DNA of 64,000 nucleotides from Trichodelitschia bisporula (lineage: Eukaryota). How positions within the stretch are numbered: position 1 is the first letter of the stretch; the number at the start of each line of letters is the position of its first letter. Position numbers and translations under genes: made by a program. The DNA is taken from NCBI GenBank assembly GCA_010356995.1, contig ML996687.1:931803-995802 (forward strand), written 5' to 3'. Below are positions 19,248-63,510 of this stretch, one piece after another. The notes beneath the pieces are model-generated. The model did no database searches and was not told the origin of the DNA. It saw only the letters and a program-made list of their open reading frames with translations.

Positions 19248-19865
19248 TTAAGATGATTCCGTTTGCGTCGGTAGGCTGTCTACGGCAAAATACTTCCCCA
19301 CGTGAGATTGCGCATGGTCCAATGGGCGCCAGGCTTCAGGGCGTGAGGTGTCAAGCGTCGATACTGGATGCCGCCGTATCCGCTTATGGTGCTTTCCGAT
19401 AATCTCTTCGTTCTCCAAGATTTCGTTAAGTGTTTCAAGGTTGATTTCCCGCTCTCGATCGGAGGCGGCAGTTTCGTCTCGGATGCTCAATAGCGGCTCA
19501 ACTCCGACGGTGTCAACTTTTTGGATTTCGCGGATGAAGTGAAGTTGTGAGGCAAGAGAGCGAATCATCGACACTTCCTCTTCAGTACCTTTCGGCTGAG
19601 GAAGGGCTGAGAGACGAAGCAAGTGACGGAGCTGTTCTGGGAATACAACATGACTTCCGGATGACGCTTCATCGGCAGGAAGAAGGGATGACACCGACCA
19701 CGTAGGCTCGGAGAGTCCTGTCGCGACGGCTAAATCTGCTTGATCTTGAATGTGACGCCCATCGGATGGGAAAGGTGCCAGGTGACATGACGTGAAGTGC
19801 CGGGCAACCAGCCTGGCCGGTCCCAGCCCATTACCAGTTGAACGGTGTATCCGTAGACCTAGCAT
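19248..19865 (-). CDS. Mitochondrial Glu-tRNA(Gln) amidotransferase small subunit (fungal GatF/Gta3/GatC-like)
   Basis: Presequence, PTWSVSSLLP, LRHLLRLSALP, SQLHFIREIQKVDTVGVEPL and C-terminal GKYFAV, a GatC-like pattern. Confidence 0.75.
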   Translation of the reverse strand: MLGLRIHRSTGNGLGPARLVARHFTSCHLAPFPSDGRHIQDQADLAVATGLSEPTWSVSSLLPADEASSGSHVVFPEQLRHLLRLSALPQPKGTEEEVSMIRSLASQLHFIREIQKVDTVGVEPLLSIRDETAASDREREINLETLNEILENEEIIGKHHKRIRRHPVSTLDTSRPEAWRPLDHAQSHVGKYFAVDSLPTQTESS

Positions 19866-20154
19866 CTTCGAAATATAAGCAAGCTGTGAAAAAGCTGAGG
19901 ACTGTGGGACCGCTTACCTGAGTATGTGCTCGTGATACATGCACGCTTGTAGGTGAGGATTGGCGTACGGGTTGCACCTTGCTCCAACTGGGACCGACGT
20001 CTTTGTCGGCCGGAGCCGGAGAAACATGTGGACGGCAGACCACTATCCCATGCACCCAGTCTCACACCAACAAGGCTGACATCGCGTCCGCATATACGGT
20101 ACCACTACATTATCTGGATCTGTCGCTGCAAGGGCGAATAACTGTACCCGAAAA

Positions 20155-20898
20155 ATGCGCGGCAAACTTGTTGTCTTCGAAGGGTTGGATAGGGCTGGGA
20201 AATCTACCCAGTGCGCTCGACTCGTGGAAAAGCTTGAACAAAACGGCCATAAAGTCCGGCACATGCGCTTTCCAGGTGCCTAGATACGGTCTGAACAGAT
20301 GTTTGCTCCCGTACTTACTCTGCTAGACCGAACCACTCCCATCGGACAGGTGATAGACAAGTACCTCAAAGAGCAGGCCGACCAGGAGGATCACGTCATA
20401 CACCTTCTCTTCACGGCCAACCGTTGGGAGGCCTCGTAAGTTGTAACCAATGTTCAACTTTCTGTGACTCACACGTATAGTGCTTCGGTTCGTTCCGCTG
20501 TAGAAAGCGGCGAAACTGTAGTGATAGATCGGTACTACTACTCCGGCTGCGTCTACTCGGCCGCCAAAGGTAACCCGTCCCTGGACCTCGTTTGGGCTCG
20601 TCGCCCCGAAGTAGGTCTGCCGCGCCCAGACATCTGCATCTTTCTCGATATTTCAACCGATGCGGCCGCTAAACGCGGCGGCTTTGGGGAAGAGAAGTAC
20701 GAAACCACCGGCATGCAAAAGCGCGTTCAGGAGCTCTTCGAAGCCATGCGGAATTCAGCCGACAAAGATGATTTCGTCAGCATAGATGCTGGGAAGCCGG
20801 CCGAAGAGGTCTCAGGAGCTGTGTGGAAGGCCATATCGGCGGCTTTTGAGCGAGTCGACACGTCCGGCGCACCTCTGGGCGTAGTGGAATCATGGTAG
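20155..20898 (+). CDS. CDC8: Thymidylate kinase, 2 introns
   Basis: MRGKLVVFEGLDRAGKSTQ P-loop, RFP|DRTTPIG, HLLFTANRWE, DRYYYSG and GLPRPD. Confidence 0.95.
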
Positions 20899-21109
20899 AC
20901 GACCGCAGAGACATTTTCAAGGTACACAAAGTCTCAACCCGTAGCAATAAGCCTCAACATATCAAGCCGAAACTCAGGACCAGCTGAGAAGCAATACAGA
21001 GACAAGGGACCGGGCATCAATCATTTTCGCGTCCTCATAACTACGATATGATGTCCTGTCGTCTAGTTTATTCTAGCAGCATATGTGGCTGGTGCATTGA
21101 GCACTACAT

Positions 21110-22930
21110 CTAAGGAGTCACACGCTGCGGGTCTCTCGGGAACATAGTCGCGAGGCGGACATTCTTGAGATCTAACCAGTTGAGGACAATGCGCTCAAGG
21201 CCGAACGCCCCACCAGCATGTGGCGGACATCCTGCTGCCGTTAGCCTGGATAATATTGGAGCGTAAAGGGGCGAACTCACCGTAGCTAAAAGCTTGTACA
21301 TAGTCCTTAAATCCCGGGTTCTCGGGATCCAAGCCCAGCGTCTTCATCCTCGCCACCAGCATACCATGGTCGTGGATGCGTTGAGCGCCAGACAACACCT
21401 CCTGGCCGCGCATCATGAAGTCGTAAGAGTTGGAAAACTTCGCGTTCAAGTCGGCGCCCTTGGGCATGGTGTAGAAGGCGCGGCACGCGAGGGGATACTC
21501 GGTCAGAATGTAGAAGTCGGTATTATACTTGGCCCGCACAAGGTCACCAAGCTGCTTCTCCTGAGTTGAATTGATGTCATCGTCAAACGAGGCATCGATA
21601 CCGGCGTCCAGCAAGAGTTGGATACCCTCGGAGAAGGTAATGACGGGAATGTCCTCAGGTTTCGCGGGCAACTTGAACGGCTCGCTCTTGTATGTCTGGC
21701 GCACACGCGAGGCCTGCTTCCCGAACTTGCTATCCAGGTTGGACAAGACGTGGTGTAGCAGATCACGGATAAGAAACATGACCTCCTGGTAATCATCGAC
21801 AAACTCAGCTTCCAAGTCGAGTGAGGTGTACTCTGACAGATGGCGGGAAGTGTTGCTGTTTTCGGCACGGAACACGGGACCGAGTTCCATGACGCGCTTG
21901 TAGCGAGCAGCAATGAGCATTTGCTTGTACATCTGTGGTGACTGCGCCAGATAGGCCTTCTTGCCGTAGTAGCCGACTTCGAACACATTCGCACCACCTT
22001 CGCTAGGCGACCCAAGCAGCTTGGGCGAGTCGACAGCAAGGAAGCCACGCTCCCGCAGGAAGTCCTGGAACAGGTTCCGCGCTCCGCTACGGATGTCGAA
22101 GATGGCGTGGTTGAGGGTGCTGCGGAGGTCAAGTACGCGGTTGTCAAGACGCGTGCTAAGACCGACAAGGGGACGCCCGCTCTCGGCCTTCTCTTCAGCG
22201 GCACCGGGCGCATCGCTGGGGAGCGCTTGCTCTGCGTCATCAACTTGGATGGGCAGCTGGGGAACGGAACGGGACACGGTCCAGAGCTGGGTGATGTGTA
22301 GCTCGCGGTTGGAGATAGTGGCACTCTTAACGGGTTCCTTAGGCTCCTTGACGATGCCGATCACGTCGACGATTGATTCGGCGGGGATCGTGGAGGCGAA
22401 CTTGACCATCTGTCGACTCAGGTCTTCGCCAGCAGCTACAACAGCCTGGACAGAGTCGAGCGAATCCCGCAGGTTGAGGAAGGCCAGCTTGGCTGACTGG
22501 CTACGCGCTGTTGCAACATCGCAACGAACAAGCACCTCAACGCCATCAGCGACATCGCCCAAGTCATAGAGACGACGGCGCTTGAGCGCAAAGGGTTTGT
22601 AGTCAGTGGCGCCGACCATCGGCAAGTCGCCATATTTGCCCTTAGAGACATCGTTGGCATCGGCCTCGGCCTTTTTAGCAGCGTCGGCAGCCTGCTGGGC
22701 TTTTTTCTTTTCGGCCTGAGATTTGTGCGGTTAGCTGCGGGGTGAGGAGTAGAGGCGCATTTGATAATGGAAGATTTGCAAGGTCAAAAGGAATATATGC
22801 GGCAAATGTTCACCTTTTCCTTCTCCTTCTCAAGCTTTTTAAGAGCTTTCTTTGACAACTTCTCACCACCTTCCGTAGCCTCGGGAGCTTCTGCGACGGG
22901 ACGTTCAGGGAGGACCTGCTCAGAAGACAT
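21110..22930 (-). CDS. DPS1: Cytosolic aspartyl-tRNA synthetase, 2 introns
   Basis: LSKKALKK helix, OB fold, [43 protein letters not shown] and PPHAGG..GLER..MFPRDP. Confidence 0.93.
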
Positions 22931-23776
22931 GATTGTTTTCTTTTTCTTCAAGAGTCTGGAGATGGGAATAAAGTGATAAGGTGGTTTTGCCGGACAATGA
23001 GGGAGTACCAAATCGGTAGCGAAAATGTGGTAGTGGGGGAGGGGGGGGGCGGTTTGGTGGGGTGATGCAAAGTAAGGGACTGAAGGAATGAATCACAACC
23101 AGGTTCCCAGTCACCAACTACCCGTATGGTATCCGTAGAGCCTCGACAGGAATATATTTTAAAAAAGCCTGTAGCAGCCTACCACCGGTAGAGAGATGTA
23201 CCTCAAAAGGCACAGCAGTGAAAAAGGAGGAGGGCAGGACAGGGAAAGTGAGGGGAAGAGAGTTCCGAGGAGGTCGAAGTGATGGGCCAAAAGGTTAACC
23301 TTACGGGTACCTTGAGAAAGTAGTGACCGCTCCGACTGAGGGTTTTTGCGGACTGCTACGGCCGCGACCTTTTTTCTGGTGGGGTACTCCGTATTTGGGC
23401 CACAATCTAATCTCTTGTAACAATATATAATCACATGATATTGAGGCCTGGAAGGTAAAATATGTCGCCTCAGGCATTCATCGTCATACTCGGGAAATTG
23501 TTCTGTCGGGTCCCGAAGGGAGAGAGAGACGGTAGCCCCAGCCCAACAAGCCAGAAAGCGCAAGACACAAAGTGTCATGAACTCATCGCCTTGCTGGCCC
23601 CCCCCACCCCGATTCACTACATATACTCCACATACACCCACCCGCTCTGTCACTCAATCTCACCAACTCTTCTTTATCAATCTACCAATCTCCAACATCT
23701 AGACATCCCCGCAAACCCCCCCATTCCCTGAGCTTTCATCTCTTCAAGCCAACTCGAACCTACCCATCCCATCACA

Positions 23777-24762
23777 ATGTGGGTGATACAATGGTATGCC
23801 TCACTGCCCCTCTTCACTATTGTATGCTCTAGTCGCGAATGAGAAGAGTGCTAACTGCTCTACTGCAGGTGTAAGAAACTTTCTCCGCCCACCTGCCCTT
23901 CTTGATTCGGCGCGTTGACCATGCTCTGCGCTTTAGTTTACGACGTGCTCGCCGGGTTGGGCTTCCTAAATAAGCATGCCAGTGCGCTATTCCAATACTA
24001 TTCTTATCACCTCTAGACTCACACATTGGCAGAGCTGCTCTTCCTCGGGCTCGATAATGCTGGAAAGACGACTCTCCTCCACATGCTCAAGAATGATCGC
24101 GTCGCGGTCATGCAGCCCACGCTGCACCCGACTTCGGAAGAACTGGCCATCGGCAACGTTAAGTTCACAACTTTCGACCTAGGCGGCCACGCGCAGGCAA
24201 GGCGGTTATGGCGTGACGTGAGTGGTGTTGTCGAAACTCAATCTACGTTTAGACTGACTGATAACGGCAGTACTTCCCCGAGGTGTCCGCCATCGGTATA
24301 TTCCCTATTCAATGCCACACCCATGGGTGCTGATATATAAAGTTTTCCTTGTAGATACTCGGGATCACGAGCGCTTCCCGGAAGCTAAGGCTGAGCTCGA
24401 CGCTCTGGTTCGTTTCCCCGCCATGAGCCCTTTCATGGCCAGCCAAGCTAACTCGAGGCAGCTATCGATGGAGGAACTGTCGAAGACCCCGTTCCTTGTT
24501 CTCGGCAACAAGATCGACCGTAGGGCAACCCTTTCGTTTTATCACCGCCATCAGGCCTAGCTCCTCGCGAATGTGCTAACCCGATCTAGATCCCGACGCC
24601 GTGTCGGAAGAGCATCTGCGCTCCATCATGGGTCTTCATCAAACCACGGGCAAGGGCAAGGTGCCGTTGGAGAACATTCGGCCCATTGAAGTCTTCATGT
24701 GCTCCGTCGTCATGAGGCAAGGGTATGGCGAAGGCTTCCGCTGGCTCAGCCAGTACGTGTAA
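23777..24762 (+). CDS. SAR1: COPII small GTPase Sar1 (7 predicted introns, includes a 2-nt exon)
   Basis: Spliced [46 protein letters not shown] and [24 protein letters not shown]. Confidence 0.95.
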
Positions 24763-25165
24763 ATTGATGACGGAGGGATGGAGTAATGTGCAGCTACCGG
24801 GCATTCGGAGTTTTGTTGTTCTTTCCTTGCTTCGATTTCTCTCCGAAGACATCTGGCGAATTACCGAGGGTTCCTTTGGGTCGTCGCACGGAGCATGTCG
24901 TTCATTCAAGGCGCGTAAATGTCATGTAGAATACAAGGGCATCACTGTTCGCTTAGCAGAAATGTTGTTGGATTGGTGCTTGGACCTGCGTTACTACAGA
25001 AGATAAATTTGATAAATGAAGCGGGCTGAAAAATCTTCTGCTAGTAATGATTGCTCCAATGTGTCTCCAATTCCAAGCTCGACTTCATACTCGAATCTCA
25101 GCTTTGCATGTTAAGTGGTCCGTGCATTAGTGAAGTCATTGATTCTTCCCGGTGCCGGCCTTGCC

Positions 25166-25172
25166 TGACTCA
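25166..25172. promoter_or_regulatory. TGACTCA, candidate Gcn4/CpcA site upstream of HTS1
   Basis: Perfect consensus about 125 bp before the first ATG. Confidence 0.55.
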
Positions 25173-25296
25173 ACTTCTCAAGTTCGTTAAGTAGAAAGTC
25201 TGTTTCCCCACCACAACCACCCCCACTTTCACCACCGCAACGCCTCAACCCTTCCTTTCACGATCCGCCCTCCTTTATCCCCGGAGGCTTCGCTGC

Positions 25297-27116
25297 ATGC
25301 GCGCTGTAACCTGTGCTTCCCGCGCTCGCATCCTCTCAGCCTCGCGCAGTTTAGTCACAAAGTTTCCACCGTCTCGCTTGTCGCATATACACCCCTTTGC
25401 CTACCCCGCTGCAAATCGAACCGTCTACACCGGGGCTCCAGACATGGGCAAAGAGAAGGGGGAGAAGCTGACCTTTCAGCTCAAGACTCCCAAGGGCACA
25501 AAGGACTGGGAGGGGCGGGACATGGTCATTCGCGACAAAATCTTTTCCACCATCACAGATGTGTTTAAGCGCCACGGAGCCGTCACCATAGACACGCCTG
25601 TCTTTGAGCTCAAGGAGATCCTCGCAGGCAAATATGGCGAAGACAGCAAGCTCATCTACGACTTGGCCGACCAGGGCGGTGAACTCTGCTCTCTCCGCTA
25701 TGACCTCACCGTTCCGTTCGCACGCTGGCTCGCCATGAACTCGTCGGTGCAGAGCATCAAGCGCTACCACATTGCCAAGGTATACCGGAGAGACCAGCCA
25801 GCCATGACCAAGGGCCGCATGCGCGAGTTCTATCAGTGTGACTTTGACATCGCCGGCGTTTACGACCCTATGCTGCCGGACGCCGAGATCCTTCGCATCA
25901 CATCTGAAATCTTCGAAGCCTTGGGGTGGCAGGGCCGGTACACGATCAAGATCAATCACCGTAAGATCCTCGATGGCATCTTTGAGGTGTGCGGTGTGCC
26001 CAAGGACAAGCTGCGCACCATCAGCAGCGCTGTCGACAAGCTGGACAAGTCACCGTGGGCTGAGGTTCGCCGGGAGATGACAGAGGAGAAAGGCCTTGAC
26101 GGCGATGTGGCAGACCGCATCGGGGAGTACGTCAATCTCAAGGGGAGCCGAGACCTCCTGGCCAAGCTCTCCGCGCATCCTACTCTCTCAGCCAACGCCG
26201 ATGCCAAAAAGGGTCTTGATGACATGAACCTCCTCTTCGACTATCTCGACATCTTCGAAGTCACTGACAAGGTATCCCTGGATATGAGCCTGGCTCGTGG
26301 TTTAGATTACTACACCGGTGTCATTTACGAAGTGGTAACAGAGGGTTCCGCACCGCCTGCTACTTCGGGCGCGCCCTCCCAGGAAGTTGCGCCCAAAAAA
26401 GGAAAGAAGAAACCAACAGCAAACGACCCGGACGAGGACCGGTCGTCCGATCCCACTGTCGGCGTCGGCAGCGTAGCAGCTGGCGGGCGATACGACGAGC
26501 TAGTCGGCATGTTCAGTGGCAAGCAGCAGATACCGTGTGTTGGCATCTCTTTCGGTGTCGACCGCATATTCAGCATCACCAAGGCGCGCATGGAGAAGGA
26601 AAAGGCTACGGCCCTCCGGCTGAACGAGGTCGACGTGTTCATCATGGCCTTTGGCGGGAAGGGCTTTGACGGTCTACTAAAGCAACGCATGGAGGTGGCA
26701 AAGGAGCTGTGGAATGCAGGTGTCAAGGCTGAGTTCTCGTGGAAAGTCAAGCCAAAGGTGCGCCCCTGGGCTTCTCTAGTGGTCATAAATTCTCCGCTGT
26801 AACCACTACTGACATTCATCTCTAGCTTCCGCAGCAGTTCAAGCAGGCCGAGCAGGGCGGCGTGCCCTTTGCTATCATCCTAGGAGAGGACGAGCTGGCG
26901 CAGGGTAAGCTCAAGATCAAACAGATGGGGCTTCCTGAGGGCCATCCCGAAAAGGACGGTGTCATGATCGAGAAGGTGAACTTGGTTCCCGAAGTAAAGG
27001 CTCGGCTGGCTGCCTTAGCTGAAGAAGCCGCCGTAGCGGATGGAGCTGCGAGAATAAAGATCCAGGATCGCGACGATGTGCCCAACGAGGCACCCGCAAT
27101 ACCTACCGTCTCGTAA
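25297..27116 (+). CDS. HTS1: Histidyl-tRNA synthetase (mitochondrial ATG 25297, cytosolic ATG 25444), 1 intron
   Basis: [53 protein letters not shown] and AAGGRYD. Confidence 0.97.
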
Positions 27117-39548: not shown

Positions 39549-39836
39549 GGCTGCTGCACGCTTCCAAGGCTTGACGGATGTGAGGCTAGAATGCACAGAT
39601 TACTGGGAAGTATGTATAGCTAGCAGCAAGTTAACTACGAGGCGGCAGGCAGATTGAAAAAATCTTCACCTTTCAATGCCATGCTTCAATGACCTTAAAC
39701 CGTCCGATGTGAAAATGCTCAAATAAGGCTGCATGCCATGCCTCTCTGCGTCATGGTGCAGGCCAAACCTCATTGGAGAGTCGTGGCCCCAACCCCGGCT
39801 CGGAAAAACTTAACACCGATACACTATTCCCAATTC

Positions 39837-39857
39837 GGAACCTGGAACCTGGAACCT
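39837..39857. repeat. (GGAACCT)x3 tandem repeat in the RPN5 promoter
   Basis: ggaacctggaacctggaacct seen directly. Confidence 0.8.
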
Positions 39858-40005
39858 GAGGTGCCTGAGCAGCTGCGGTGAACTGTCGAAGGCTAAGGTC
39901 ACGACATCATCGCCGCATCTTCCTCCATACCTCTTCCATCGACGCTCCCCGCCCTTCTCACAGCTTGCACCCGCAAAACCCCAGCCTAGTTGAACGCGCA
40001 CGGCC

Positions 40006-44960: not shown

Positions 44961-45195
44961 GTGAAATATGGAGCATGGAGTCCTGTCTGAATCTAGCTAG
45001 CTAGCCGTCTCTAGATCTGATCATCGTAGATTAGAATTTTGGGTTTCCCCTTCCAGTCGTGCCTTGTGCCACACTCCGGGCCTGATGACGGCATTTTATT
45101 CTACTTTTGTGCATTTCGCATACATACACGTTCCGTTCATTATCCTCACTTCATGCCCCACGCCTTAAGCCTGTTATTCGTGCAGTCATTTCTCA

Positions 45196-47038: not shown

Positions 47039-47983
47039 GATGGGGAGTTGTGAAGGTCGGATAGATAAGGAGACGGAGGGGAACAAAAAGTTGAGGAAGT
47101 TGGGGGAGTGGAGGAGGGGGACAGCAGTACTAGAACTAGGTGCCGCCGTGGTTGTCTGTCCGTCGTCTCTTCTCCAAGATGCTGAGCTAAACGCGACGCG
47201 AAATAATTCCAGACGGGGGTGGAACAAGGATTATCCGATTGAATATGGGGGGGAGTCGTACAAATGGCAGTGGCCTTTTTGTCTTGGGAGATTCTCTACA
47301 TATCGGCGAGCCTTGCTGATGATAACATAAGACTGTACCTAGGGAGAAGAACAAGAAGTGCTTGAGACTCCAGCAATCTTGCCGCTCTTTCGATCGTGGA
47401 GGTGGACATGAGAGGACAACCGTATGAACTGATGCGAGGGGAACAATTAATTAATCAAGTTGTAGGCGCGTCACCTATTTGAGAAGATGAGGCATGCCAT
47501 TATTATTCTATCAAGACACTCTTCTACCACTACACTACTGTAGTATGTGCAAGCTATAGATTGATACATGCTGTGCTACATACGGGTACTGTGATATGTA
47601 CTGTGCTACGGATGTATACTCGCATGTACTACGTCCAGCTTGCTATTCCCACCAATATTAAGAGAAAGAAATAATTCACGACGTCGCAAACAAAGGGAGA
47701 AACGTACGTGACAACCATAGGGTTTTTTAACTTCCCACAGTACTCACGCTACTACAACTAATTCTGGTTCTAGTTCTACCGTACTGTGGTACGGTTCTAG
47801 GGAAAGAGCGAGTCAGAGATTCGCGGGGTACCCAAACGAACGCTCATTACCCCTCCTCCAATCTCAAAGCCACACCGAAACCAACAGCTCACAACTTCCG
47901 CTCACAACCGAACACACCAGAAAATCGCTTATCTTTTTACACCACCCAGAAAGTGTCTATCCATCACTCTTCGAACCTTCGAA

Positions 47984-49692: not shown

Positions 49693-50049
49693 CCGGGAGG
49701 GTGTACAGTCGACGTGGGCGAGCAGGCAGGTTTCAGCTTTCGCCGGCTCCAGGAGATACCCCACACCCATGCAGCTAAAACAAAAGAATTTAGTTCGTCT
49801 GGCTTTTATGCTTTCGCAAATGTTGTGACTGTCTCTGAAAGTACCTACCGGTCATTTCCCCTTACTTCGCTCCCCGACGGCGTTTATGTTCTTCGGTTCT
49901 AGTAGAGCAGATGCGAGTGAGAAACACGGTGACAACGCACGCGGATCGGTGGATGCAACAGACCTTCAAATAGAGAGAAACCATACGTCTACCGCTCTAA
50001 TCCCTCGCCAGCCTCAGTGATTCCTAGATATGTTGCCGGTTGATATGTA

Positions 50050-52023
50050 CTATTGCAGTCTCACACCCGCCTGCTGCGTCCGCTTTGCCTTGTCCCCCAT
50101 GGCCGTACTGACAACATGCTGGCTGCTGTCCAACAAGCTCATGGCCTCGCGCTTCTTCTCCTCTTCGATCTTCTTAAGCCGTTTCTCCGTCTTCTGCTTG
50201 CCGCTGCCCTTGCCATGGAACTGATGCGACAGGTGCTTGAATGCCTCCTTTTGGCTCATGTGGCGGCCAAACTCGTCGACGTATTTGAGCTCAACCTGCG
50301 GCCGGTAATCGCGGTTGAACATGTTGGTCAGCTCGCGCGACTCTTGCTGCTCGCGGTGCACGTTGCTCTGCCGCGCGTACTCCTCGCGCTCGCGAGCCGA
50401 CATGCGCTCCAGCCGGCCGCTCGTGCGGTCGCGCTCGCGCTGCATGCGCGCCTTGCGCTCGGCGTCCTCTTCGCGTTGACGCCGCTCCGCCAGGAATTTC
50501 TGTTGTTCACGGAACGACGAGTTGAGGTCACTGCCGTCGTGAGCATGTAATAACCCGCGCTGCTGTAACATCGCCACCGTCGCCCCAAGCCCCTGGTTGA
50601 GACTGCTCTCCTCTTCCAGGCCTGTGTGGGGAAGATCCGGTGCAACCACTGCCGTAGTCTCGCCACTTTTGTTGCGTTCCGCAGCTTCTTCAACGGCCGC
50701 ATATGACTGCTCCATGTCGACGTCGCCCTCAGCGTCAGCTGAATCTGTGCGGTGACGAGCCTTTTCAGGAGGCTGGGCAGATTTGCGCCGCGGCCGTTCG
50801 TCCTCATCTTCCGGCCGGCGCAAGTTGGCGACGAATTCGGACGTCTCGTCGAGCACTAGACCTGGTTCCTCAACGCTTTCAGTGACATCCATGGCGTTCA
50901 ATTCCTCCTCCTTAAGCTGTTTAGCCAAATCTTCGGGGCGCATTCGCTTCCGCTTCTTCAAGGCCCCTCGCCTCTGTTGCGCGAGCATGGCCTGAAGGTC
51001 CTCATCATCGATGATGTTCGATTCGTCTAAGGTGCGATTCTTGCCAGTCACGGCACTTCCAGCTCCAGAATCCACTTCCATAGTATCCGCGCTGGGCGCC
51101 ACAGACGGAAGGGGAGGGATATCGTCGTCGTCGACTTCGCGCTTCCGCGTTTTCCTCTCTTTCTTCTTCTTAGGCTTGCGGATCTTGATTTCTGACGGGT
51201 CAACGTAATCGGAGACCGGCTGCTTCTCCTCACGGAAAAGCTCGAGGTTAATCAGGACCCCCTTGGCCCGGTATTCTTCCTCCACAGCAGCCGACTGGGC
51301 TAACTCCAAAGTGCTGCCCTTGCCATCAAGTGTAAATGCACTGGTTTTGGTAACGCCGAGGCCCTCATCGTACTGAGCAAGTAGCGACTTGGGTCCCGAC
51401 TCGTCGATGTCGTTAGGGTTGTAAACCGGTTTCCGTTTTTTCGATTCGAGGCGCTTTTCAAGCTGCTCCTTCGCCCGCAATTCCAGATTCTCCAACTCGT
51501 CCTCCTCACTTTCATCGCCAATGACAGCATCCTTGAGCGTCAAAACTTGTTCGCTGCCAGCGTCAAACTGATCCAGCTCGTGGCCGACTTTGACGCCGGC
51601 AAGGTCGCGGGCTGTGTATTCAGCCTTCTTTCGCTGCGCCTCGCGCTCCTCCTGCAGCTTCTGTTCCTTCTCAATCTTTTTCTGGCGCTTTTTCTGTTGG
51701 ACTAACCATGACCGCGTGTCGAGGTCCTCCTCGGCTTCGCCCAAGGTCCTGCCCGCATATTTAGCGTCTCGCATAGCAGCATCTCGCGCTTTCTTGATTG
51801 CCTCCTTTTGCGCCTGTCGCTTCGCCTTGGCTGCAGCGTCCTCGTGCAGCTTCCTCCAGTTATCGCCGGCAGCCGCCTCGCGTGTGTCGATGGTGCTGGC
51901 GGGTTCTTCCCCGGAGTCGCCATCCTTGGATTTGAAGACTGGACCTTCACCGGCGGCTGGGAGCGGCTTCAGGCCCATAGCCACTCGGATCTTGTTCGCC
52001 GCATCTATATCGATTTCCGCCAT
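50050..52023 (-). CDS. SNU66: U4/U6.U5 tri-snRNP protein Snu66/SART1
   Basis: HIND-like NKIRVAMGLKPL, LAGVKVGH, LTLKD, DETSEFV and LKYVDEFGR..KEAFKHLSHQFHGKGSGKQK. Confidence 0.93.
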   Translation of the reverse strand: MAEIDIDAANKIRVAMGLKPLPAAGEGPVFKSKDGDSGEEPASTIDTREAAAGDNWRKLHEDAAAKAKRQAQKEAIKKARDAAMRDAKYAGRTLGEAEEDLDTRSWLVQQKKRQKKIEKEQKLQEEREAQRKKAEYTARDLAGVKVGHELDQFDAGSEQVLTLKDAVIGDESEEDELENLELRAKEQLEKRLESKKRKPVYNPNDIDESGPKSLLAQYDEGLGVTKTSAFTLDGKGSTLELAQSAAVEEEYRAKGVLINLELFREEKQPVSDYVDPSEIKIRKPKKKKERKTRKREVDDDDIPPLPSVAPSADTMEVDSGAGSAVTGKNRTLDESNIIDDEDLQAMLAQQRRGALKKRKRMRPEDLAKQLKEEELNAMDVTESVEEPGLVLDETSEFVANLRRPEDEDERPRRKSAQPPEKARHRTDSADAEGDVDMEQSYAAVEEAAERNKSGETTAVVAPDLPHTGLEEESSLNQGLGATVAMLQQRGLLHAHDGSDLNSSFREQQKFLAERRQREEDAERKARMQRERDRTSGRLERMSAREREEYARQSNVHREQQESRELTNMFNRDYRPQVELKYVDEFGRHMSQKEAFKHLSHQFHGKGSGKQKTEKRLKKIEEEKKREAMSLLDSSQHVVSTAMGDKAKRTQQAGVRLQ

Positions 52024-52870
52024 GGTGATAACACGTAGGGGAGGATGAGAAAGTGTGGAAACACGTGTGGAGTTCGAGGCGTAGATGGGGGTGGGCGGAG
52101 GCGGAAGATTGAGGGTGAACCGCTGGAGCAGCAAGCTGCCAAGGAGAATTCCCCCGGAGCGGCGAAACGTGAATGGCGTATGCACGTGAAGTCTTGGCAT
52201 CAAATCTTCGCGCGTATAAGAAGGCAAAACTCCTCCCCGTCTCTCTGTCTTTTCTTCACGGATCTGTTGCCCGCCTTTCCTCGCGGTCTCGGCTGCGAGT
52301 TGAGAGTCGGGCAGCTCGACAAATCTAGGGAACCATCCTCACCTCCTCCGTGATGCAAATCCTGTCGGCAGATCTTAGAGCAAAAACAGCGCGCCAACTT
52401 GATCCTGAGTTCTTCGTGAGCTCGGTGAAGTTGTCGCGCTGGGGGCGTCTTATTCCGTTCCGTCTAGAGCGAGCGCTTAGCCCGTGAAAATGAAGGACAA
52501 ACCAAGGCAGCCTACATCCATTTACGTCTCCCTCCTCTTTTGTTGCATCCATGCTTGTCATCACTCTCTTTCTCGTGACGGTCTAGCACAGTTTTGTAGG
52601 TGTATCCCGCGCCGTAGCTACCCCTGCTCCGCGTAGATGAATAGGTCCCCTGTGGTTATGGATATACAGTATAGCAACATAGCAACGTGCAGCCCCAGAC
52701 GTAGACGGCACAATTAATTTGGACGCCTGCTTCTCCGTCGGACATTTTCTCGTGTCGTGAGGGGCAAGTTCGTCTTAAATGACCGTCATGCCTCTGTTTC
52801 GGAGCAACCGTACACGGCTCCTCCTCATGCTCAGTTTCTTCAACCAGTACCGTGTCCACTCCCTTCGGTC

Positions 52871-53715
52871 ATGAAACTTGCCATTGCAGTGCTCGCGCAC
52901 GCTGCAGCGGCTGCTGCTGCGACACCCAAGCTTCTGATATGCTCAGACAGCACCACGGCCAACTACACCAGCGGTCCGCTGCAGGGCTGGGGCTACTACA
53001 TTGGCGAATACCTCTCCATTGGAGTTGTAAACCTCGCACGCAACGGCCGCAGCACACGCTCTTTCATCAAGGAGGGCCTGTGGAGCAAGTTGCTATCGCA
53101 GACCCAGGCGTCCGACTATGTCGTCATCGAAATGGGTCATAACGACGACGGGGACCCGACCGACCCGAAGAATACACGCGGCGGTCGCAGTGTGCTGCCG
53201 GGTATCGACGGCAAGACGGCGTCAGTCAAAGACGAGAACGGCAAGGCAGAGACAGTCCACACCTTCGGCTTCTACTTGCGCGAGATGATTGAGGATGTGC
53301 GCAAGAAGAATGCCATTCCCATCATCTCGGGCATGGTGCCGCGCAACTACTGGCGTCAGGGTAAGCTGCAGAGCGACTACAAATTCACCGACTGGGCGCG
53401 CCAGACGGCCGAGCAAGAGAAAGTTGAGTTTCTCGACCACACCAAGTACGGCGTGGAACGACTGCGGCCGCTGGGTGAGACGAAGGCAAAGACCTATTTC
53501 CCTCAGGACAATACCCACACCAACGCGGCAGGTGCGAAATGTAAGCGTGCACCATCCGGAAACCCCCATGCGGCGGTTGAAAGAGTGCTTTGAAAAAGGC
53601 TGACACGGCTCTTTCAGTGAATGCCGAGACGTTCGTGACGGCAGCGAAATGCGCCAAATCGCAGCTGGTTCGACACCTCAATGGCAAGGGCCAGGAAGTT
53701 AAGCAAAGTTGTTAG
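52871..53715 (+). CDS. Secreted SGNH/GDSL esterase, rhamnogalacturonan acetylesterase-like (CE12), 1 intron
   Basis: Signal peptide MKLAIAVLAHAAAAAA, SDST, QGWG, NLARNGRSTRSF, EMGHND and DNTHT. Confidence 0.88.
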
Positions 53716-53994
53716 TGGTCCTTGGACACTAAATTAAATAATACTGGGTGTGGCACTGTACTTCTACATAGAATGCACATGTTGGCCCAAAGACTTGCCT
53801 AATGGGTGATGGACGTGTTGACATGTACGCAGTAAACGAGTATTCTTGTCATGTGATTACGCATCACCGCGTTTCGGGCGTGGAAAAACATTATCCCCGT
53901 GGAGAATGGGCAACGGAGCCAGCTCGCGATCGGACCAAGGAACAATCCAATGCTTCCATTCACCTCTGTTGCATCTCATAGATGATCCTCTACC

Positions 53995-55200
53995 ATGAAA
54001 ATCAAGCTGAAAACCACCTCGCACCCTACCCCTCCTCCTCCTCTGCCTCCATCGCTTGCTCCAACTCAAAAATCCCCGATGGCGAGATCCAAGTCCACCA
54101 AAACCGCTGCGAAGGCCACCGGTCCGGATAACGATGGCTCTCCTCCTAAACCCAAGCGTGCGTACAACAAGAAGCCGAAGCCGGAACCCGCCGACGGCGA
54201 AGCTTCGGCCTCAGCTCCCAAAGTCGCCAAAAAGCGCGCTCGCAAGGACGACGATGATGACGGTGCCGCGGAGCCGAACAAGAAAGCCAAGATGTTGAAG
54301 GTCAAGCTCAATACAAAATTCCTTCCAGACGATGGCGCCCCGAAGTCTTCTCTTAGCGCTGCCAACCCACCGCCCTCTCTACAGCGGCAAGATTATCAGC
54401 CGCTTCCGAAGGTCAAAATCGCCATGAAGAAAAGCTTCAGTACTCCGCGCGTTAAGATCAAACATTCCGGCGCTCCGCCGGAGCGGCACCATGCTGTTGG
54501 ATACGATAGCGAAGCCGAAGATGCCGAAAACGACCCGCACATTGAGCAGCAGTTCGTTCTCCGCATGCCGCCCGGTCGCGACTGTGATATCCTGCGCACC
54601 GCAATCAACGAACGCAAGATTGGCCTTCCAGTGGGACGTGGTGGTTTAGATGTCTACTTCCGTTTCTTCGACAAGGAAGGGCGGCGCGCCGCTGTCCATA
54701 TCGAGAACAGGATCTACGCTGCTACGCTTCTGGACCTGCCCTGTGTCATAGAAGCAATGAAAACCTGGGACAAGCGTGGTTTGTACAAGACCGCGGATGT
54801 TTGCCAGGTTTTACTTGTTCTGGGACTCGTGGCTAGCGAAGAGGAAGCCAAATCCTACCCTCTACCGCGCGAAGTTGATGCAGATACTTGGCAGTATCCC
54901 CATGGTTTGACGCCCCCCATGCATTGGGCTCGAAAGCGCCGCTTTCGTAAGCGGGTCAGCTTCCGTACTATCGAGGCTATCGAAGATGAGGTTGCGCGTC
55001 TGCTCGATCTTGATCAGCAGGCCTGGGATACCGGTGGCGACTCCGAGTATAAGATTGTCGATCTCACTCATAAGGATTCTCAAGGAGCCTCAGATGAGGA
55101 AGACGCCTACGGTGAGGAGGCTGACGGCTACTATGAGGATGAAGATGAGGATGATGGGGAGTTTGCGCGTCTCATGGAGAAGGAGCTCGCGCGTCCAGGC

Positions 55201-55238
<38 letters not shown>

Positions 55239-55626
55239 CGAGGATGCTCGTCTTGCTACCGATCAGGGCATGGAAATCGATGCCAAAGTAAACCCAGAAG
55301 ACTCCATGGCGCCTCCGATTGCCACTCCTGCCGCTGTTGGTACGCCATCTATTACCGAGGGAAGCCATGACGAAGGCGGCATGGAATCCGAGCTCGAATC
55401 AGAGCACTTGGACGAAGATGAGATTGCCGCCCTCGCGGAACAGGAGCAGCAGCGGGAAGAAATCGAAGACCTCAAGAAGGAAATCGCACAGGCCGAAAAC
55501 CAACTTGCCAGTCAGACTAATCCGCATCTGAAGCAGCGCGCCGCGGCCAAAGTCAAGAGTCTAAAGGCGGACCTGGAACTCAAGATGGTTGGACTCGGTG
55601 AGGGCGCAGAGGAGGATGAAGGTTGA
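53995..55626 (+). CDS. TAF7: TFIID subunit Taf7
   Basis: GYDSEAED..DPHIEQQFVLRM, LLDLPCVIEAMKTWD..YKTADVCQ and YPHGLTPPMHWARKRRFRKR. Confidence 0.93.
55201..55236 (+). repeat. (GAT)12 coding microsatellite (poly-Asp) in TAF7
   Basis: Seen directly. Confidence 0.95.
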
Positions 55627-55993
55627 TGCAGGCCCGCAGGTCATTGAGGGCACTGAGGGGCTTTTGAAGAGCTCTTTACTTTGCATGCATAGCACTGCGG
55701 GATGGTTTTTAGCGGGAATTGAAGTCAGTCGCTTCTCTGATCGCTGAAGATTTACTTGATGGTTTTTTAAAGCGATTCAAGTGTTTTCAGATACCCTCAA
55801 GAATCCGATTTTTACTGCACTCAAGTGTGACATGGTTTACGTCACGCCTGTTTATCCTCGATCTTGATACAGATACACTATGCTACAATCTTCCACGTTT
55901 TGGACAAGAATCCCGCACCCATGAACAATACTACCAATGCAATGCCTTGATTAACCAGACGCTTCGCCACACTGAAATGCCGTACGTAATGTA

Positions 55994-58383
55994 CTACTGA
56001 TGCCCGTTCACAGCGCCCAAGCCCTCCAGCTCATCCCTAACCGCTCTGTACGCCTCCTGTCCCTCGCGCCCACGACGGCTGATGAAAGCAACCTCGTCTC
56101 GCAATCCCTCCAAACGGCGAGCGATGGCAGCTTCCTCGCCCACTTGCGCGCGAAGTGCCGTATTGAGATCGATGCGCGTCTTCTCCAGCGCGTCGGCGGC
56201 TTCCGTGATCTTCTGCCGCAGCATCTTGGCTCGCTGCACATAACCTCCATGAACTTTGACCAGCTTCCTTTCGACCTCGTTGCCCCGGTCAGCATCAGCC
56301 ATGATTCTCTCCTGGATACTCTGCCTTCAGGTTAGTCAGATCCTCTCGCAGATGGCCGTCAACTTACATCGAAGGCCTCCACCATCAACTGGTGCTCGTC
56401 GATCTCATCCTCAAAATAGCCATCAAGACCAGGAAGACGCGCTGTGCTGTGTAGCTCCATCCAGCCTCTAACGAACTCCTCTTTCTCCACTTGGGCCTGC
56501 TTGGTGGACAGCTCCTTCGACACCTCCGCCCGCGCCTTCCCCAGTAAGTCATCGTCGAGGTCTTGCAAAGGTCGAACAGTGCCGCTAATCTTGGAGCCCC
56601 CAAACTTCCTACCGTCATGTGCAATGAGGAGGGCAGCCTCCACCGCTATCGCTTTTTCGGTAGGATCCTGGATAGCCTCAGCATTGCGAAGCATAGCGTC
56701 CACATCCACAATCGTTGGACGAGGAAGCCCCATCTGCACCACTTGAGTTTGACGTTTGAAATCGGTCAGTTCGGCAGCCTGACGCAGCTGCCTCTCGCGC
56801 CGGTCACGCAGAGCAGCGTCTTCAATGCTAACCTCAGTCCGCACAACCTCCTGTTGTTCTTCAGGAAGTTCCAGTTCAAACTCGAGTTCCTTGGGTTTAG
56901 GCAGAGCAGCAAATCTGTCAAGGAGATTCTTGCGTACAGCTTGCTCACGCAACTTCATGTCCCGAGGGGTTTGGCTCACTAGCTGCATACCGCTGTCTTG
57001 GTTCAGACTCAGGCTATCTCGAGGGGTCCGTAAAGGAGTTGCGCCGGGACCTCGCAGAGGGGTGGATCCGATGCCATTGACTCCCTGGCGGAAGGGCGTA
57101 GCCAGGGGATTCGGCGTCGCTACTGCCTGCTTGCTCGGGGCAGCGCCACCGAAGCCAGTTGAGCCCGAGCCTTCAACAAGCGGAGCATTGTCACCCCCCA
57201 GCAGGGCGGATTGTGTATCTGTCAAGGCTCTGGCATTCCGAATTTCGTTCGCGACGCGGTCTTCCTCTTGAGGGGCGCGGGGTGTCCGGATAGGGGTGGC
57301 TCCGGCCATGTTTGAATAGTTGCCGATGAGACCCCGGGTAGCATCGTATTCGCTGTTCCCTGCTACCTGAGCCGCACGCTCCCCAGCAAAACCCATCTTG
57401 ATGATATCCTCCAGCTCCGCATCGGATACCTGGGGGGCGGGAAGCACAAGGGGCCTCCGCATGCTGCTTTGCTCTGCTTCTCTGATCTTCTGCATTTGTG
57501 CCGCCTTGATTGCCGCAGCAGAGAGGCCACCCTCGTTGGCTTTGTCGTTCTTCTTTCTCTTGCGCTCTTCTCCCTCGTCGTCGTGTTCCCCCTTGCGTTT
57601 ATTAGCAAGCTGCTGCTTTCTAGGGTCGAACGCCTCGCGCTGTCGCTCATTGCGGTCAAGTTCCTCGCCCGTATCGTAAAAGCCAGGAGCAGGCGCACGT
57701 TCGAAGGGAATGTCGGCGTTGTAGTCCATCTCTCCTTTCTTGAAAGTCTTGAGTTTGATGTTGATACCGCTCATCTTCAACTCTCGCCTCTTCTGCAAGG
57801 ATGCTACTCTCCTCGACTCCTCAAGCTGCCGCTCTCTCGCCTTTCTCTTCGCCTTTTTGCCCTGTGTGTTCGCAAGGCGAGCTCTCGCCTCGCTGAGCAT
57901 CTCCTTTTCATCTTCATCCAGGTCGACGGTGTCCGGCCGTGCTGGTTTTGATTCCGGGTCTGGATCCAACTCGCCAGGCCTCAGCTTTCGCACGTCGTCA
58001 GCGCTCGGCGCAACCGTCTCTCCGCCGCTCGGCCCCCCGAGCGCCAGGTCTCCTGCCTCCCTCGCCTCGGCCTCGTCCAGCAGTTTCTGGTAGCGCTCCA
58101 AGCACTGCGTTGCCGTGCGGCCCACGATGGGTGCAATAGTTCGCCATTGTGTGGGCATCAGCTTTGCAAGATGCAGGAGTTTCTCATCCTCCTCTTTGCT
58201 CCATTCAATCTTCTTGATCTGCGGGTCCAGCCATTCCGACCATCGCGCCTTGCACTGCTTGGGAGTCTTGCGCGCAAGGAGTGACGATACACGTGCCCAT
58301 TGATTAAGGCCATATTTGGAAATGGATGCCTTGAGGATTTCATCTTCGATGTTGGTCCAGACGCCGCCTTTGACGGTCACCAT
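55994..58383 (-). CDS. CEF1: Myb-domain splicing factor Cef1/Cdc5, 1 intron
   Basis: [41 protein letters not shown] and [16 protein letters not shown]. Confidence 0.97.
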
Positions 58384-58488
58384 GGCGACGAACTGGTTTT
58401 AGGGCAGTGATGCACGGTGTTGGAAGCGGACGATGGTAAACTGCAGGCGGTCCTAGTGAGAACGGAAGTGTCTGCGATAGGGTGGGTG

Positions 58489-58537: not shown

Positions 58538-58586
58538 ACGGAAGCTTCACCGCGGTCGCGAACTTCCGGCGCGCCAAGATACTGAT

Positions 58587-60361: not shown

Positions 60362-60978
60362 GGCTGGATGGTGCTTTTGGAAGCAAATTGGGATTAAACA
60401 ATCAAAGAGTAAGCGCGAAGCACACGAAGGTATTTCTCCAAAGTTGCAGGAGAATTTTAAGCAACGAAAGAGAAGGGAAAGCAAATGAATTTAACTACGG
60501 ATCGTAAATCGTCAGGACCTATCGAACGCCTCAGAGCCGTACAAGAGGGTCATGCGGTCCGGACTTGGACAAACATGTCGGTGGGTGGTGTCTCGGGAGC
60601 GGAAGTAAAGACGTCCAATGGTACGAAGCGCGATCCGGAACCATTCCAAAAACGCCGTTGCTTTCCCGTGCGCATTGGTGATGTTGACAGTGCTGCAGCA
60701 TGTAAGGCCGATGCTAGCCGAGCAAAAAGTGATACGCAGTTACAATTTGTGCTCTAAACAGTTTCATGCTATTACGTACTGTATGGGGCGTAACTGGGAA
60801 ACGTAATTCTCAGCTAGTTCTTGAGTTAGTTCGAGAGGGGACGATATTCACATGAGAGGATCCGCACAAAGAAGAGTACTTAGGTCCCGTGACCTATCCC
60901 ACCGATTACAGTCGGTAAGATTTGCCCGGAACAAAGAATTTCCTTCACCGTTCAGTCTCGAGCCCTTGGCCTATAGGA

Positions 60979-61003
60979 ATGACTCCGCCAAGGCCTGACT
61001 CAT
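60979..61003. promoter_or_regulatory. Tandem ATGACTC and TGACTCAT, candidate Gcn4/CpcA sites upstream of THS1
   Basis: Sites at 60979-60985 and 60996-61003, about 150-170 bp before the ATG. Confidence 0.6.
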
Positions 61004-61148
61004 CCGCCCCCCTCCCCCCACACCTCCCCAACAATGAACCCGCGTCAAAGCCTCGCGAAATCCGTTGGTGGGGTAGCTTTCTTGTCGCCAAATCTCCAAC
61101 ACTTGTGACTAGCATTTGCCCCATTCAAAAATACCCCTAGCCGTAGCC

Positions 61149-63510
61149 ATGGCGGACGCCGTGAAGAATACCATCGGCGAGATCAAAGAAGGTGTCAAGC
61201 AACTGGGTGTCACCGACAAATCCAAACAGCCAAAAAAAGACAAGAAGAAGGCCGGCAAAGACACCGCTTCTGGCCCAGATGAGCTCGAAACTCCTCCAGC
61301 TTACTTTGACCACCGGATCCAGATCTTCGAGAAACTCAAGGCCGAGCGTGATGCCGAAATTGCACAAAAGCCGCGAGAGCAGATCAACATTACCCTTCCC
61401 GATGGTCGCATGGAAGTCGGCACGTCGTGGGAGACTACCCCCGCGGATATCGCTCGCTCAATCAGCAAGTCCCTCTTCGAACGCACTGTCATTTCTCGCG
61501 TAGATGGCGAGCTGTGGGATCTTGAACGTCCACTCGAGGGAAGCTGCAAACTAGCACTGCTGGAGTTTGAACATCCCGAGGCAAAGAAGGTCTTCTGGCA
61601 TTCGAGTGCTCACATACTGGGGGAGGCCGCCGAGCGGCGGTTCGGCTGCGACCTTTGTATTGGCCCACCTGTGGAGGATGGCTTTTATTACGAGATGGCT
61701 CTGCCGGGAGGTGCGGTCGTCCAGGAATCGGACCTAGCTCCGCTTGAGCGCGTCGCTGCCAAAGCCATAAAGGAGAAGCAGCCCTTCGTTCGCCTGGAGC
61801 TTTCAAAAGATGACCTCCTGGAGATGTTCAAGACGAATAAGTACAAGCAGCATATTATCAAGGACAAGATCCCCGATGGCTCATACACCACCGTGTATCG
61901 TTGTGGTCCGTTGATTGATCTGTGTCGTGGTCCGCACGTACCACATACTGGGCGCATAAAGACGTTCAAGATCATGAAGGTGAGAGGCATTGTGCCAATT
62001 ATTGTCCCAAAGCTATACTGAAGAAAGGCAGAACTCTGCATCATACTTCCTCGGCGATGCCGCCAACGACTCCCTGCAACGCATCTACGGTGTCTCCTTC
62101 CCAGACAAGAAGCTGATGGACGAGCATCTGAAGTACCTAGAAGAGGCTGCGAAGCGAGACCACAGGAAAATCGGCAAGGAGCAAGAGCTCTTCTTCTTCC
62201 ACGAGCTCTCTCCGGGATCGTGTTTCTTTTTGCCACATGGAATGATCATCTACAACACTCTTCAGTCCTTCCTGCGGTCGGAGTACTGGAAGCGGGGCTA
62301 TCAGGAAGTGAATACACCAAACATGTACAATGCTCAACTCTGGATGAAGTCCGGTCACTGGGAACACTACCAAGATGACATGTTTACCTTCACTGTCGAA
62401 AAGCAGCCTTGGGCGTTGAAGCCAATGAACTGCCCTGGACACTGCCTCCTGTTTGCACATCGTGAGCGCAGCTATCGGGAGTTACCCTTGCGGATCGCAG
62501 ATTTTGGTGTTCTACACCGCAACGAGGCCTCAGGTGCGCTCACTGGCCTGACACGTGTGCGGAGATTCCAGCAGGATGATACACACATTTTCTGCACTCA
62601 AGACCAAATCACCGACGAGATTATTGGTCTCTTTGATTTCCTAGGCACTGTTTATGGCAAGTTCGGCTTTACTTTCAAGCTTAAGCTCTCCACCCGGCCG
62701 GAAAAGTACCTCGGAAAGCTGGAAGAGTGGAACCTGGCAGAAGCCAAGCTTGAGGACGCTCTGAATCAATTCAAGGCCCAGAAAGGCGCTGAATGGGAGC
62801 TCAATGTCGGCGATGGCGCCTTCTACGGACCTAAGATTGATATCACCATTTGCGACGCTCTTAGGCGGGAGTTTCAATGTGCCACCATTCAACTCGACTT
62901 CCAACTTCCTCAGCGCTTTGACCTGGAGTACATGACAGCTGAGAATGCCCCAAAAGATTCTCAACAAGAAGCAAATGCTCCCGCGGAGACCGACAGCAAG
63001 AAGACCGAGCCTTCAGGGCCAAAGCCGGGCTATGCACGCCCGGTCATGATCCATCGCGCCATTTATGGTAGCTTCGAACGCTTCATCGGAATCCTCACGG
63101 AGCATTTCGGTGGCAAGTGGCCGTTCTGGCTGAGCCCACGTCAAGTGCTCGTCGTTCCGGTCATGCCTGCCGTGAATGACTATGTCGAGGAAGTCCGGAA
63201 GATCTTCCGGGATAAGGGCATGCATGTGGACATTGATGTCAGCGGCAACACCCTCCAGAAGAAGATTCGGACAGGTCAATTGGCCCAGTACAACTTCATC
63301 TTCGGTAAGGGTGCCATGGTCCTTTGTATCCGTATGCATGGCTAATGAGATGTAGTTGTGGGCGCCCAGGAGAAGGAGAGCCGCACAGTCAATATCCGAA
63401 ACAGAGATGACCCTGCCACTCAGGCCAAGGGTGAACTGGTTCCTCTTGAAGTGGCCATCGAGAAACTCACGGCACTGCGTGATACCCGGGTGTTGAAGAA
63501 TGCTATCTAG
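61149..63510 (+). CDS. THS1: Cytosolic threonyl-tRNA synthetase, 2 introns
   Basis: TGS domain [59 protein letters not shown] and [11 protein letters not shown]. Confidence 0.97.

Follow-up and report, generated by a model that had tools for sequence, protein, structure and literature searches.

The genome of the fungus Trichodelitschia bisporula contains a stretch in which five aminoacyl-tRNA synthetase (aaRS) genes, those of AspRS, HisRS, MetRS, ProRS and ThrRS, lie within 42 kb. Together with the genes of the tRNA CCA-adding enzyme CCA1 and of the amidotransferase subunit GatF, they occupy positions 19.2–63.5 kb of the 64,000-nucleotide piece of DNA that was analysed, which we call the window and to which all coordinates refer. 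We favour, with moderate confidence, the explanation that this huddle is a derived by-product of the shuffling of gene order in Dothideomycetes, in which the aaRS genes are native and independently controlled and nothing acts on them as a group. The by-product possibly sits within an island rich in essential genes. The huddle looks like the outcome of reshuffling rather than a working unit because the relatives keep the genes apart and because no common control element was found. We infer that its assembly was neutral. At the tested junctions, the pairing of the ProRS gene with the chaperonin gene TCP1 is the sole old element of the stretch and the sole linkage common to relatives.

The tRNA-related genes of the window

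T. bisporula is a dung saprobe placed in the order Phaeotrichales of the class Dothideomycetes, according to PMC7082219. The window is fungal DNA, with a G+C content of about 55% and short spliceosomal introns. The identities of its genes were obtained from a Pfam scan of the 41 long stop-to-stop open reading frames (ORFs), and the enzyme types of AspRS, MetRS, ProRS and ThrRS from phmmer searches against the sequences of the Protein Data Bank (PDB). Public RNA and DNA contigs were aligned to positions 19000–38999 for checks of splicing and assembly. The tRNA-related genes, together with TCP1, are as follows.

19248..19913, minus strand: GatF/Gta3, subunit F of the mitochondrial Glu-tRNA(Gln) amidotransferase (Pfam Gta3 7.4e-21, GatF 1.6e-14); covered by RNA contigs
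21000..23159 (3' end approximate), minus strand: AspRS, cytoplasmic, DPS1 type (Pfam tRNA-synt_2 3.1e-59); main ORF 21195-22730, intron 22715-22812, 5' exon to ~23159; spliced RNA contigs
25195..27000 (3' end approximate), plus strand: HisRS, HTS1 type (Pfam tRNA-synt_His 1e-37); ORF 25195-26802, intron 26756-26823; spliced RNA contigs
34980..36838, minus strand: CCA1, tRNA CCA-adding enzyme (Pfam PolyA_pol head 3e-22 and PolyA_pol_RNAbd); joints in RNA contigs
42812..44960, plus strand: MetRS, cytoplasmic type (Pfam tRNA-synt_1g 2.6e-67 and Anticodon_3); main ORF 43439-44960
45196..47000 (5' end approximate), minus strand: TCP1, alpha subunit of the CCT chaperonin (Pfam Cpn60_TCP1 1.9e-130), putative assignment; two exons
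47984..49570 (ORF 47801-49570), plus strand: ProRS, cytoplasmic (Pfam tRNA-synt_2b, HGTP_anticodon and ProRS-C_1)
61149..63510 (ORF 61113-63345; 3' end from the initial annotation), plus strand: ThrRS, cytoplasmic (Pfam TGS, tRNA_SAD, tRNA-synt_2b and HGTP_anticodon)

Pfam confirmed every gene as it had been named in the initial annotation of this DNA. The five aaRS genes that the annotation had placed between 21110 and 63510 also stand, but its count of 18 consecutive genes has to be corrected. The stretch from AspRS to ThrRS holds about 20 genes, five of which are aaRS genes, because SAR1, which had been missed, is added and because Tti2 is counted apart from CCA1; counted from GatF, the number is about 22. 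No tRNA genes were found in the 64-kb window.

The best structural match of AspRS is yeast DPS1 (1asy, 3e-130). MetRS matches human cytoplasmic MARS1 (5e-78), ProRS matches the ProRS domain of human EPRS (2e-165), and ThrRS, which has TGS, SAD, core and anticodon domains, matches human TARS1 (4.9e-162). These four enzymes group with yeast or human enzymes of the cytoplasm and not with the mitochondrial or bacterial types. Relatives of HisRS carry the name ‘cytoplasmic and mitochondrial’, so that by those names one gene serves both compartments, and the T. bisporula HisRS is probably dual-targeted as well. ProRS may have a small 3' exon after position 49570. The assignment of the TCP1 gene to CCT-alpha comes from our own reading of its N-terminal sequence.

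Linkage of the genes in related fungi

The main exon of TCP1 was used as a query against metagenome contigs, and 10-kb flanks were taken, which yielded 80 fungal loci with TCP1 identities of 70–91%. The full 10 kb was present on both sides in 20 of the loci, and 46 had at least 2 kb downstream of TCP1, where MetRS is located in the window. Thirty-eight ORFs of the window, with SAR1 left out of the queries, were compared to the 80 loci by tblastn.

ProRS is linked to TCP1 within 10 kb in 44 of the 80 loci. In 33 of the 80 loci, the two genes are head-to-head and no more than 3 kb apart; among the 47 loci that extend 3 kb or more upstream, 23 have this arrangement. Other placements of ProRS are convergent just downstream of TCP1 (seven loci), on the same strand about 6 kb downstream (three loci) and about 5 kb upstream (one locus). 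Two further loci have partial matches to ProRS, ProRS is missing from seven loci that extend 3 kb or more in both directions, and 26 are uninformative. In the window, the start codon of ProRS is at about 47984 and the 5' end of TCP1 at about 47000. ProRS and TCP1 are a linked pair that is widely conserved in filamentous fungi, and they have the properties of a bidirectional gene pair: a head-to-head orientation, a short shared intergenic region and recurrence across lineages.

None of the other tested junctions recurs. MetRS is absent next to TCP1 from all 80 loci, 46 of which are informative for that position. ThrRS, AspRS, HisRS, CCA1 and GatF were likewise each found by tblastn in none of the 80 loci, and the same holds for each of the genes of TMP kinase, FBA, RPN5, Yae1, SART-1, GDSL lipase, TAF7 and Cef1. 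A LYC1-like gene, the neighbour of ThrRS in the window, is located 3–4 kb from TCP1 in three of the 80 loci without an adjacent ThrRS, and it is through these LYC1-bearing loci alone that the linkage of ThrRS was judged. The clustering of the flank ORFs, combined with Pfam, gave 101 neighbour families common to at least two loci, none of which was an aaRS family other than ProRS; the most widespread family occurred in at most 13 loci.

The position that MetRS has in the window is occupied in seven loci (L001–L004, L011, L028 and L032) by a BUD3-type RhoGEF gene with Nod1, RhoGEF and PH_BUD3_C domains, which is tail-to-tail with TCP1. Loci L001–L004 have the highest TCP1 identity, 89–91%. The next gene after RhoGEF is Dcc1 in four loci (L001, L003, L004 and L028). 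A BUD3-type RhoGEF gene is absent from the window. Because the loci most similar in TCP1 carry RhoGEF at the MetRS position, the MetRS–TCP1 junction is derived, and the RhoGEF neighbourhood was probably the older arrangement that MetRS replaced.

The linkage among the aaRS genes themselves was addressed with named proteins of other Dothideomycetes. A shared scaffold was judged from the scaffold size given for each protein, using single-member clusters; Elasticomyces, Cryomyces, Friedmanniomyces, Aureobasidium, Meristemomyces and Zasmidium, with several assemblies or multi-member clusters, were left out. ProRS and AspRS share a scaffold in one of 18 other species, Peltaster fructicola, in which their locus tags are 172 apart. 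AspRS and HisRS share a scaffold in none of 16 species, among them Tothia fuscella, whose order (Venturiales) is the closest named one in AspRS identity, and ProRS and HisRS in none of six. At the tested junctions, relatives have thus kept no linkage of the huddle beyond background synteny, and the absence from relatives that the initial annotation had named, along with missing co-expression, as a reason to abandon its proposal was found at every one of them.

Promoters and regulatory motifs

The initial annotation had suggested a possibly co-regulated translation and tRNA neighbourhood. This suggestion is not borne out by the promoters. Four of the aaRS genes form a head-to-head arrangement with a gene of unrelated function (AspRS with SAR1, MetRS with Yae1, ProRS with TCP1, and ThrRS with the LYC1-like gene), and HisRS follows SAR1 in tandem. 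No two of the five aaRS genes have a common promoter, and each has its own.

The motif TGASTCA, which we take to be the binding site of Gcn4/CPC1-type regulators, occurs four times in the 64-kb window, compared to 10.3 occurrences expected. Two of the occurrences precede aaRS genes.

25166..25172, plus strand: TGACTCA, about 55 nt upstream of the starts of the HisRS RNA contigs (25222-25224); putative Gcn4/CPC1-type site
60996..61002, plus strand: TGACTCA, 147 nt 5' of the start codon of ThrRS; putative Gcn4/CPC1-type site

No TGASTCA was found upstream of AspRS, MetRS and ProRS, so that only two of the five aaRS genes have the canonical site. Any control by amino-acid starvation would act gene by gene, with TGACTCA present at HisRS and ThrRS only. 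A comparison of the upstream regions of the five aaRS genes with 17 other upstream regions yielded no aaRS-specific k-mer. The sequence ATCCGTAG was considered as an aaRS motif and rejected: it also turns up in coding sequence and in the promoters of further genes, and its 44 matches compared to 34 expected are not significant, given that five of 100 shuffles reach that count. There is no gene of a transcription factor among the Pfam hits of the 41 ORFs. Neither a shared cis element or promoter nor a regulator residing in the cluster was thus found.

Transcription and probable native origin

Two RNA assemblies contain spliced joints in the region 19000–38999 that are missing from the DNA assembly, and the genes at 19–39 kb are therefore transcribed. 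An independent assembly of a DNA run spans positions 19000–37886 in one contig and continues in another, and RNA contigs bridge adjacent genes. The local assembly is thereby independently supported. Database proteins named for T. bisporula are 100% (ProRS), 99% (AspRS) and 100% (HisRS) identical to those of the window, and all three are encoded on one contig of 2,035,263 nt.

AspRS of T. bisporula is 71–73% identical to those of Venturia and Tothia, 64% to that of Verruconis and 52–59% to those of other orders. Among the other orders of Dothideomycetes, AspRS identities are 57–74%, and one pair within an order (Lindgomyces and Parastagonospora) reaches 86%. The identities of HisRS and ProRS to other Dothideomycetes are 77–82% and 63–70%, respectively. 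The pairwise identities follow the phylogeny, which argues that the genes are native single orthologues rather than foreign or spare copies.

Two observations concern these enzymes individually. The AspRS proteins of T. bisporula and of the Venturiales (Venturia, Tothia and Verruconis) are just 49–59% identical to those of other Dothideomycete orders, and look like a fast-evolving lineage. A database ProRS that carries the name of the Sordariomycete Ustulina deusta has 64% identity to that of T. bisporula but only 55–58% to those of other Dothideomycetes; it may be a second or transferred copy.

Origin of the huddle

Based on the gene order of the relatives and the promoters of the window, an origin of the huddle can be proposed. 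The five aaRS genes would be normal, vertically inherited and separately transcribed cytoplasmic genes. Their closeness would have arisen as a derived arrangement in the Trichodelitschia/Phaeotrichales lineage, most likely through mesosynteny, the frequent rearrangement of gene order in Dothideomycetes. No mechanism would act on the aaRS group as a unit.

Several points weigh against this origin. The null models start from 10,000 genes, of which 38 are aaRS genes and 21 encode cytosolic aaRS; these numbers were assumed rather than measured. Under these assumptions, the expected number of huddles of five aaRS genes within 20 genes is 3.1e-5 per genome, or 1.6e-6 if only the cytosolic enzymes are counted. 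The simulated probability is 9e-5 for a conserved core of 3,000 genes, and for a genome of essential genes only it is 7e-4 (1,500 genes) or 2.2e-3 (1,100 genes). Thus, with the assumed gene numbers, the members of the huddle are closer than by chance, and each simple null that was computed makes the huddle a rare event. The view of the initial annotation that the density is non-random is upheld, and its proviso that essential genes alone might often produce such a density can be set aside for the same assumed numbers. The huddle is nevertheless within reach of a very wide scan across many functional categories. The probability per 22-gene window is 2e-8, which corresponds to about 0.005 expected cases over 250,000 windows for the aaRS category alone, and there is a look-elsewhere effect because a concentration in any of many other functional categories would have been noticed just as well. 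A further difficulty for the by-product is that several independent moves would have been needed if the aaRS genes were on different ancestral scaffolds, as the scaffold comparison suggests; mesosynteny alone mostly shuffles genes within chromosomes. The sampling of relatives also tells against it. Several of the metagenome loci may represent one species sampled repeatedly. The scaffold comparison covers ProRS, AspRS and HisRS, and the relatives compared include no Phaeotrichaceae or Phaeotrichales. Some scaffolds are small, and different scaffolds need not be different chromosomes. Lastly, the enrichment of essential genes extends beyond the aaRS: about 11 of the 17 non-aaRS genes presumably have essential orthologues in yeast. 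This excess hints at a non-neutral, general force. It is unexplained by neutral shuffling, yet it is equally absent around the TCP1–ProRS pairs of relatives.

The essential genes lead to a different explanation, which we consider possible and hold only tentatively, that selection concentrated essential housekeeping genes with constitutive expression at positions ~20–63.5 kb. Low recombination or low-noise open chromatin in the region would be the cause, as proposed for the essential-gene clusters of yeast, and the aaRS genes would be present because they are essential and not because they charge tRNAs. About 16 of the 22 genes of 20000–63500 presumably have essential yeast orthologues (CDC8, DPS1, SAR1, HTS1, TAH18-like, TTI2, CCA1, FBA1, RPN5, YAE1, MES1, TCP1, ProRS, TAF7, CEF1 and THS1). 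With a background of 0.19, the binomial tail for this proportion is 6.6e-8 in one window and about 7e-4 over 10,000 windows. The genes are tightly packed, at about 2 kb per gene, and all those at 19–39 kb are represented in RNA contigs. However, the essentiality is carried over from yeast, the initial 19 kb of the window have no notable excess of essential genes, and the island is not conserved: the neighbours of TCP1–ProRS in relatives are an ordinary mix of RhoGEF, Dcc1, P450, MFS, kinase, ALG3 and other genes. Furthermore, essentiality does not fully explain the excess of aaRS genes, because five of them together still have a probability of 7e-4 to 2e-3 in a genome of essential genes only. 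In a further reading, several independent rearrangements in the Phaeotrichales lineage would have been retained by selection because they brought the five aaRS genes, CCA1, GatF and other essential genes into one protected, uniformly expressed domain. The stretch would then be an essential-gene island that is young and still forming, with more aaRS genes than essentiality alone would give; we find this doubtful.

It is unlikely that the five aaRS genes, CCA1 and GatF were gathered and kept so that one common domain coordinates the supply of charged tRNAs, for example under Gcn4/CPC1 control. Seven tRNA-related genes among about 22 are rare under the simple nulls, and two of the four TGASTCA sites of the window are immediately upstream of HisRS and ThrRS. 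However, the site is under-represented in the window and missing at the other three aaRS genes, the aaRS genes have neither a motif nor a promoter in common, the linkages are absent from the tested relatives, and at least 13 unrelated genes are interleaved. The category of tRNA genes was in part drawn after the fact, because GatF is mitochondrial and the five aaRS are of the cytoplasmic type. The limited collection of literature that was searched contained no report of clustering of aaRS genes in fungi. Even more improbable, to the point that we give it hardly any weight, is an artefact of mis-assembly or the presence of special copies, such as self-resistance copies within a cryptic biosynthetic cluster. 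The identity of AspRS to those of most Dothideomycetes is fairly low (52–59%), a point in favour of such a copy, but it groups with the Venturiales as expected, and the identities in general follow the species tree. Mis-assembly is contradicted by the DNA-run contig, by the RNA contigs that bridge neighbours and by the single 2.03-Mb public contig. The 41 ORFs include no polyketide synthase, nonribosomal peptide synthetase, terpene synthase or similar backbone enzyme, in agreement with the remark of the initial annotation that this is not a classical secondary-metabolite cluster. The interpretations as a biosynthetic cluster, a mis-assembly and a group of xenologues were rejected on the Pfam content, the independent contigs and the identities, respectively.

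Comparison with known gene arrangements

Mesosynteny has been described in Dothideomycetes (Hane et al. 2011, PMC3219968), its classic example. They keep the gene content of their chromosomes and shuffle order and orientation by frequent intrachromosomal inversions (Ohm et al. 2012, PMC3516569). The 18-genome survey reports only two class-wide syntenic blocks, neither of which contains an aaRS gene (PMC3516569). The neighbourhood of the TCP1–ProRS anchor resembles this process in that the order around it differs in nearly every relative and the pair itself occurs in three orientations, and the varied order therefore matches frequent small rearrangements. In contrast to mesosynteny, which keeps genes on the same chromosome, almost every other species has ProRS, AspRS and HisRS on separate scaffolds, so that moves between scaffolds or fusions would also be needed.

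The stretch shares with the essential-gene clusters of yeast a tightly packed run of mostly essential, constitutive genes from unrelated pathways, to the extent that the essentiality known from yeast applies. The yeast clusters are reportedly associated with reduced recombination or with low noise in expression, as Pal and Hurst (2003) and Batada and Hurst (2007) are said to have proposed. They are small and partly conserved, whereas the run in T. bisporula, with about 16 of 22 genes presumed essential, is not conserved at the tested junctions. ProRS and TCP1 resemble other fungal bidirectional gene pairs in being head-to-head, but such a pair consists of one aaRS gene and a chaperonin gene and does not make a huddle of five aaRS genes.

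Physical links between aaRS functions exist in the translation operons of bacteria (thrS-infC-rpmI-rplT-pheST) and in the EPRS fusion and the multi-synthetase complex of animals. The stretch in T. bisporula differs from them in having no polycistron, fusion or common promoter. Neither HisRS nor ThrRS is known to belong to a multi-synthetase complex in yeast or animals. The huddle thus does not comprise the genes of one multi-synthetase complex, judged by this composition and by the lack of a GST-like tethering domain in MetRS. Fungal clusters that include a resistant copy of an aaRS are similar in that an aaRS gene is found among clustered genes, but the stretch in T. bisporula has no backbone or tailoring enzymes and contains five different aaRS, all of which behave as native orthologues.

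A selected huddle would be one of the rare instances in eukaryotes in which genes for the supply of translation are gathered into one domain, and a natural test of whether essentiality, expression noise or recombination shapes gene order in filamentous fungi. If it is the by-product that we favour, it would mainly illustrate how a concentration of one function that looks highly improbable can arise under a fast turnover of gene order and still be absent from all the relatives sampled. The ProRS–TCP1 pair is of more lasting value, since it provides a clean anchor for studies of breakpoints in Dothideomycete genomes.

Interspersed genes and gene structures

The other genes of the stretch belong to unrelated functions.

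~20057-20898: TMP kinase, CDC8 type (Pfam)
23575..24900 (ends approximate), plus strand: SAR1 GTPase, putative, with six short introns (RNA contigs and spliced translation)
31431-33401: diflavin reductase (Pfam)
33890..35030, minus strand: Tti2, subunit of the TTT chaperone complex (Pfam Tti2 1.4e-53, residues 603-880 of a 982-aa ORF)
37099..58398: interspersed housekeeping genes FBA aldolase, RPN5, Yae1, SART-1/Snu66, GDSL lipase, TAF7 and Cef1 (Pfam)
41898-42764, minus strand: Yae1, head-to-head with MetRS (Pfam)
59122-60490, minus strand: LYC1-like GNAT, head-to-head with ThrRS

MetRS, TCP1 and ProRS are embedded among the housekeeping genes of 37099..58398, and one or two unknown genes are also present in the stretch. 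TCP1 is convergent with MetRS and head-to-head with ProRS. The diflavin reductase is only weakly similar to CPR/MSR proteins in the PDB search (2e-32), and we infer that it is of the Tah18/NDOR1 type.

SAR1 is located between AspRS and HisRS, head-to-head with AspRS and 5' of HisRS, and is covered by RNA contigs. Its exons and introns are very short, and the gene is invisible to the scanning of ORFs. The RNA contigs contain six joints in SAR1, five of them with GT..AG and one with AT..AG borders, all of which are absent from the DNA run. By our own reading, the spliced translation appears to be a Sar1-type small GTPase.

MetRS of T. bisporula begins directly at the catalytic region with the HIGH motif and has no GST-like N-terminal domain. 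In yeast, such a domain tethers MetRS to Arc1. There is no space for it because the Yae1 ORF ends at 42764.

CCA1 and Tti2 occupy one uninterrupted genomic frame of 982 codons (33890-36838, minus strand) with no stop codon between them. RNA contigs indicate two introns in CCA1, a 45-nt in-frame GC-AG intron at 35281-35325 and a 65-nt intron at 34915-34979. With both introns removed, the ORF of CCA1 comprises 597 aa from the first methionine, with an N-terminus that resembles a presequence. The removal of the 65-nt intron causes the ORF to end at 597 aa, whereas the unspliced frame continues into Tti2. The spliced frame has no ATG ahead of residue 123 of Tti2. The two genes may therefore either overlap or be joined in an alternatively spliced CCA1–Tti2 read-through.

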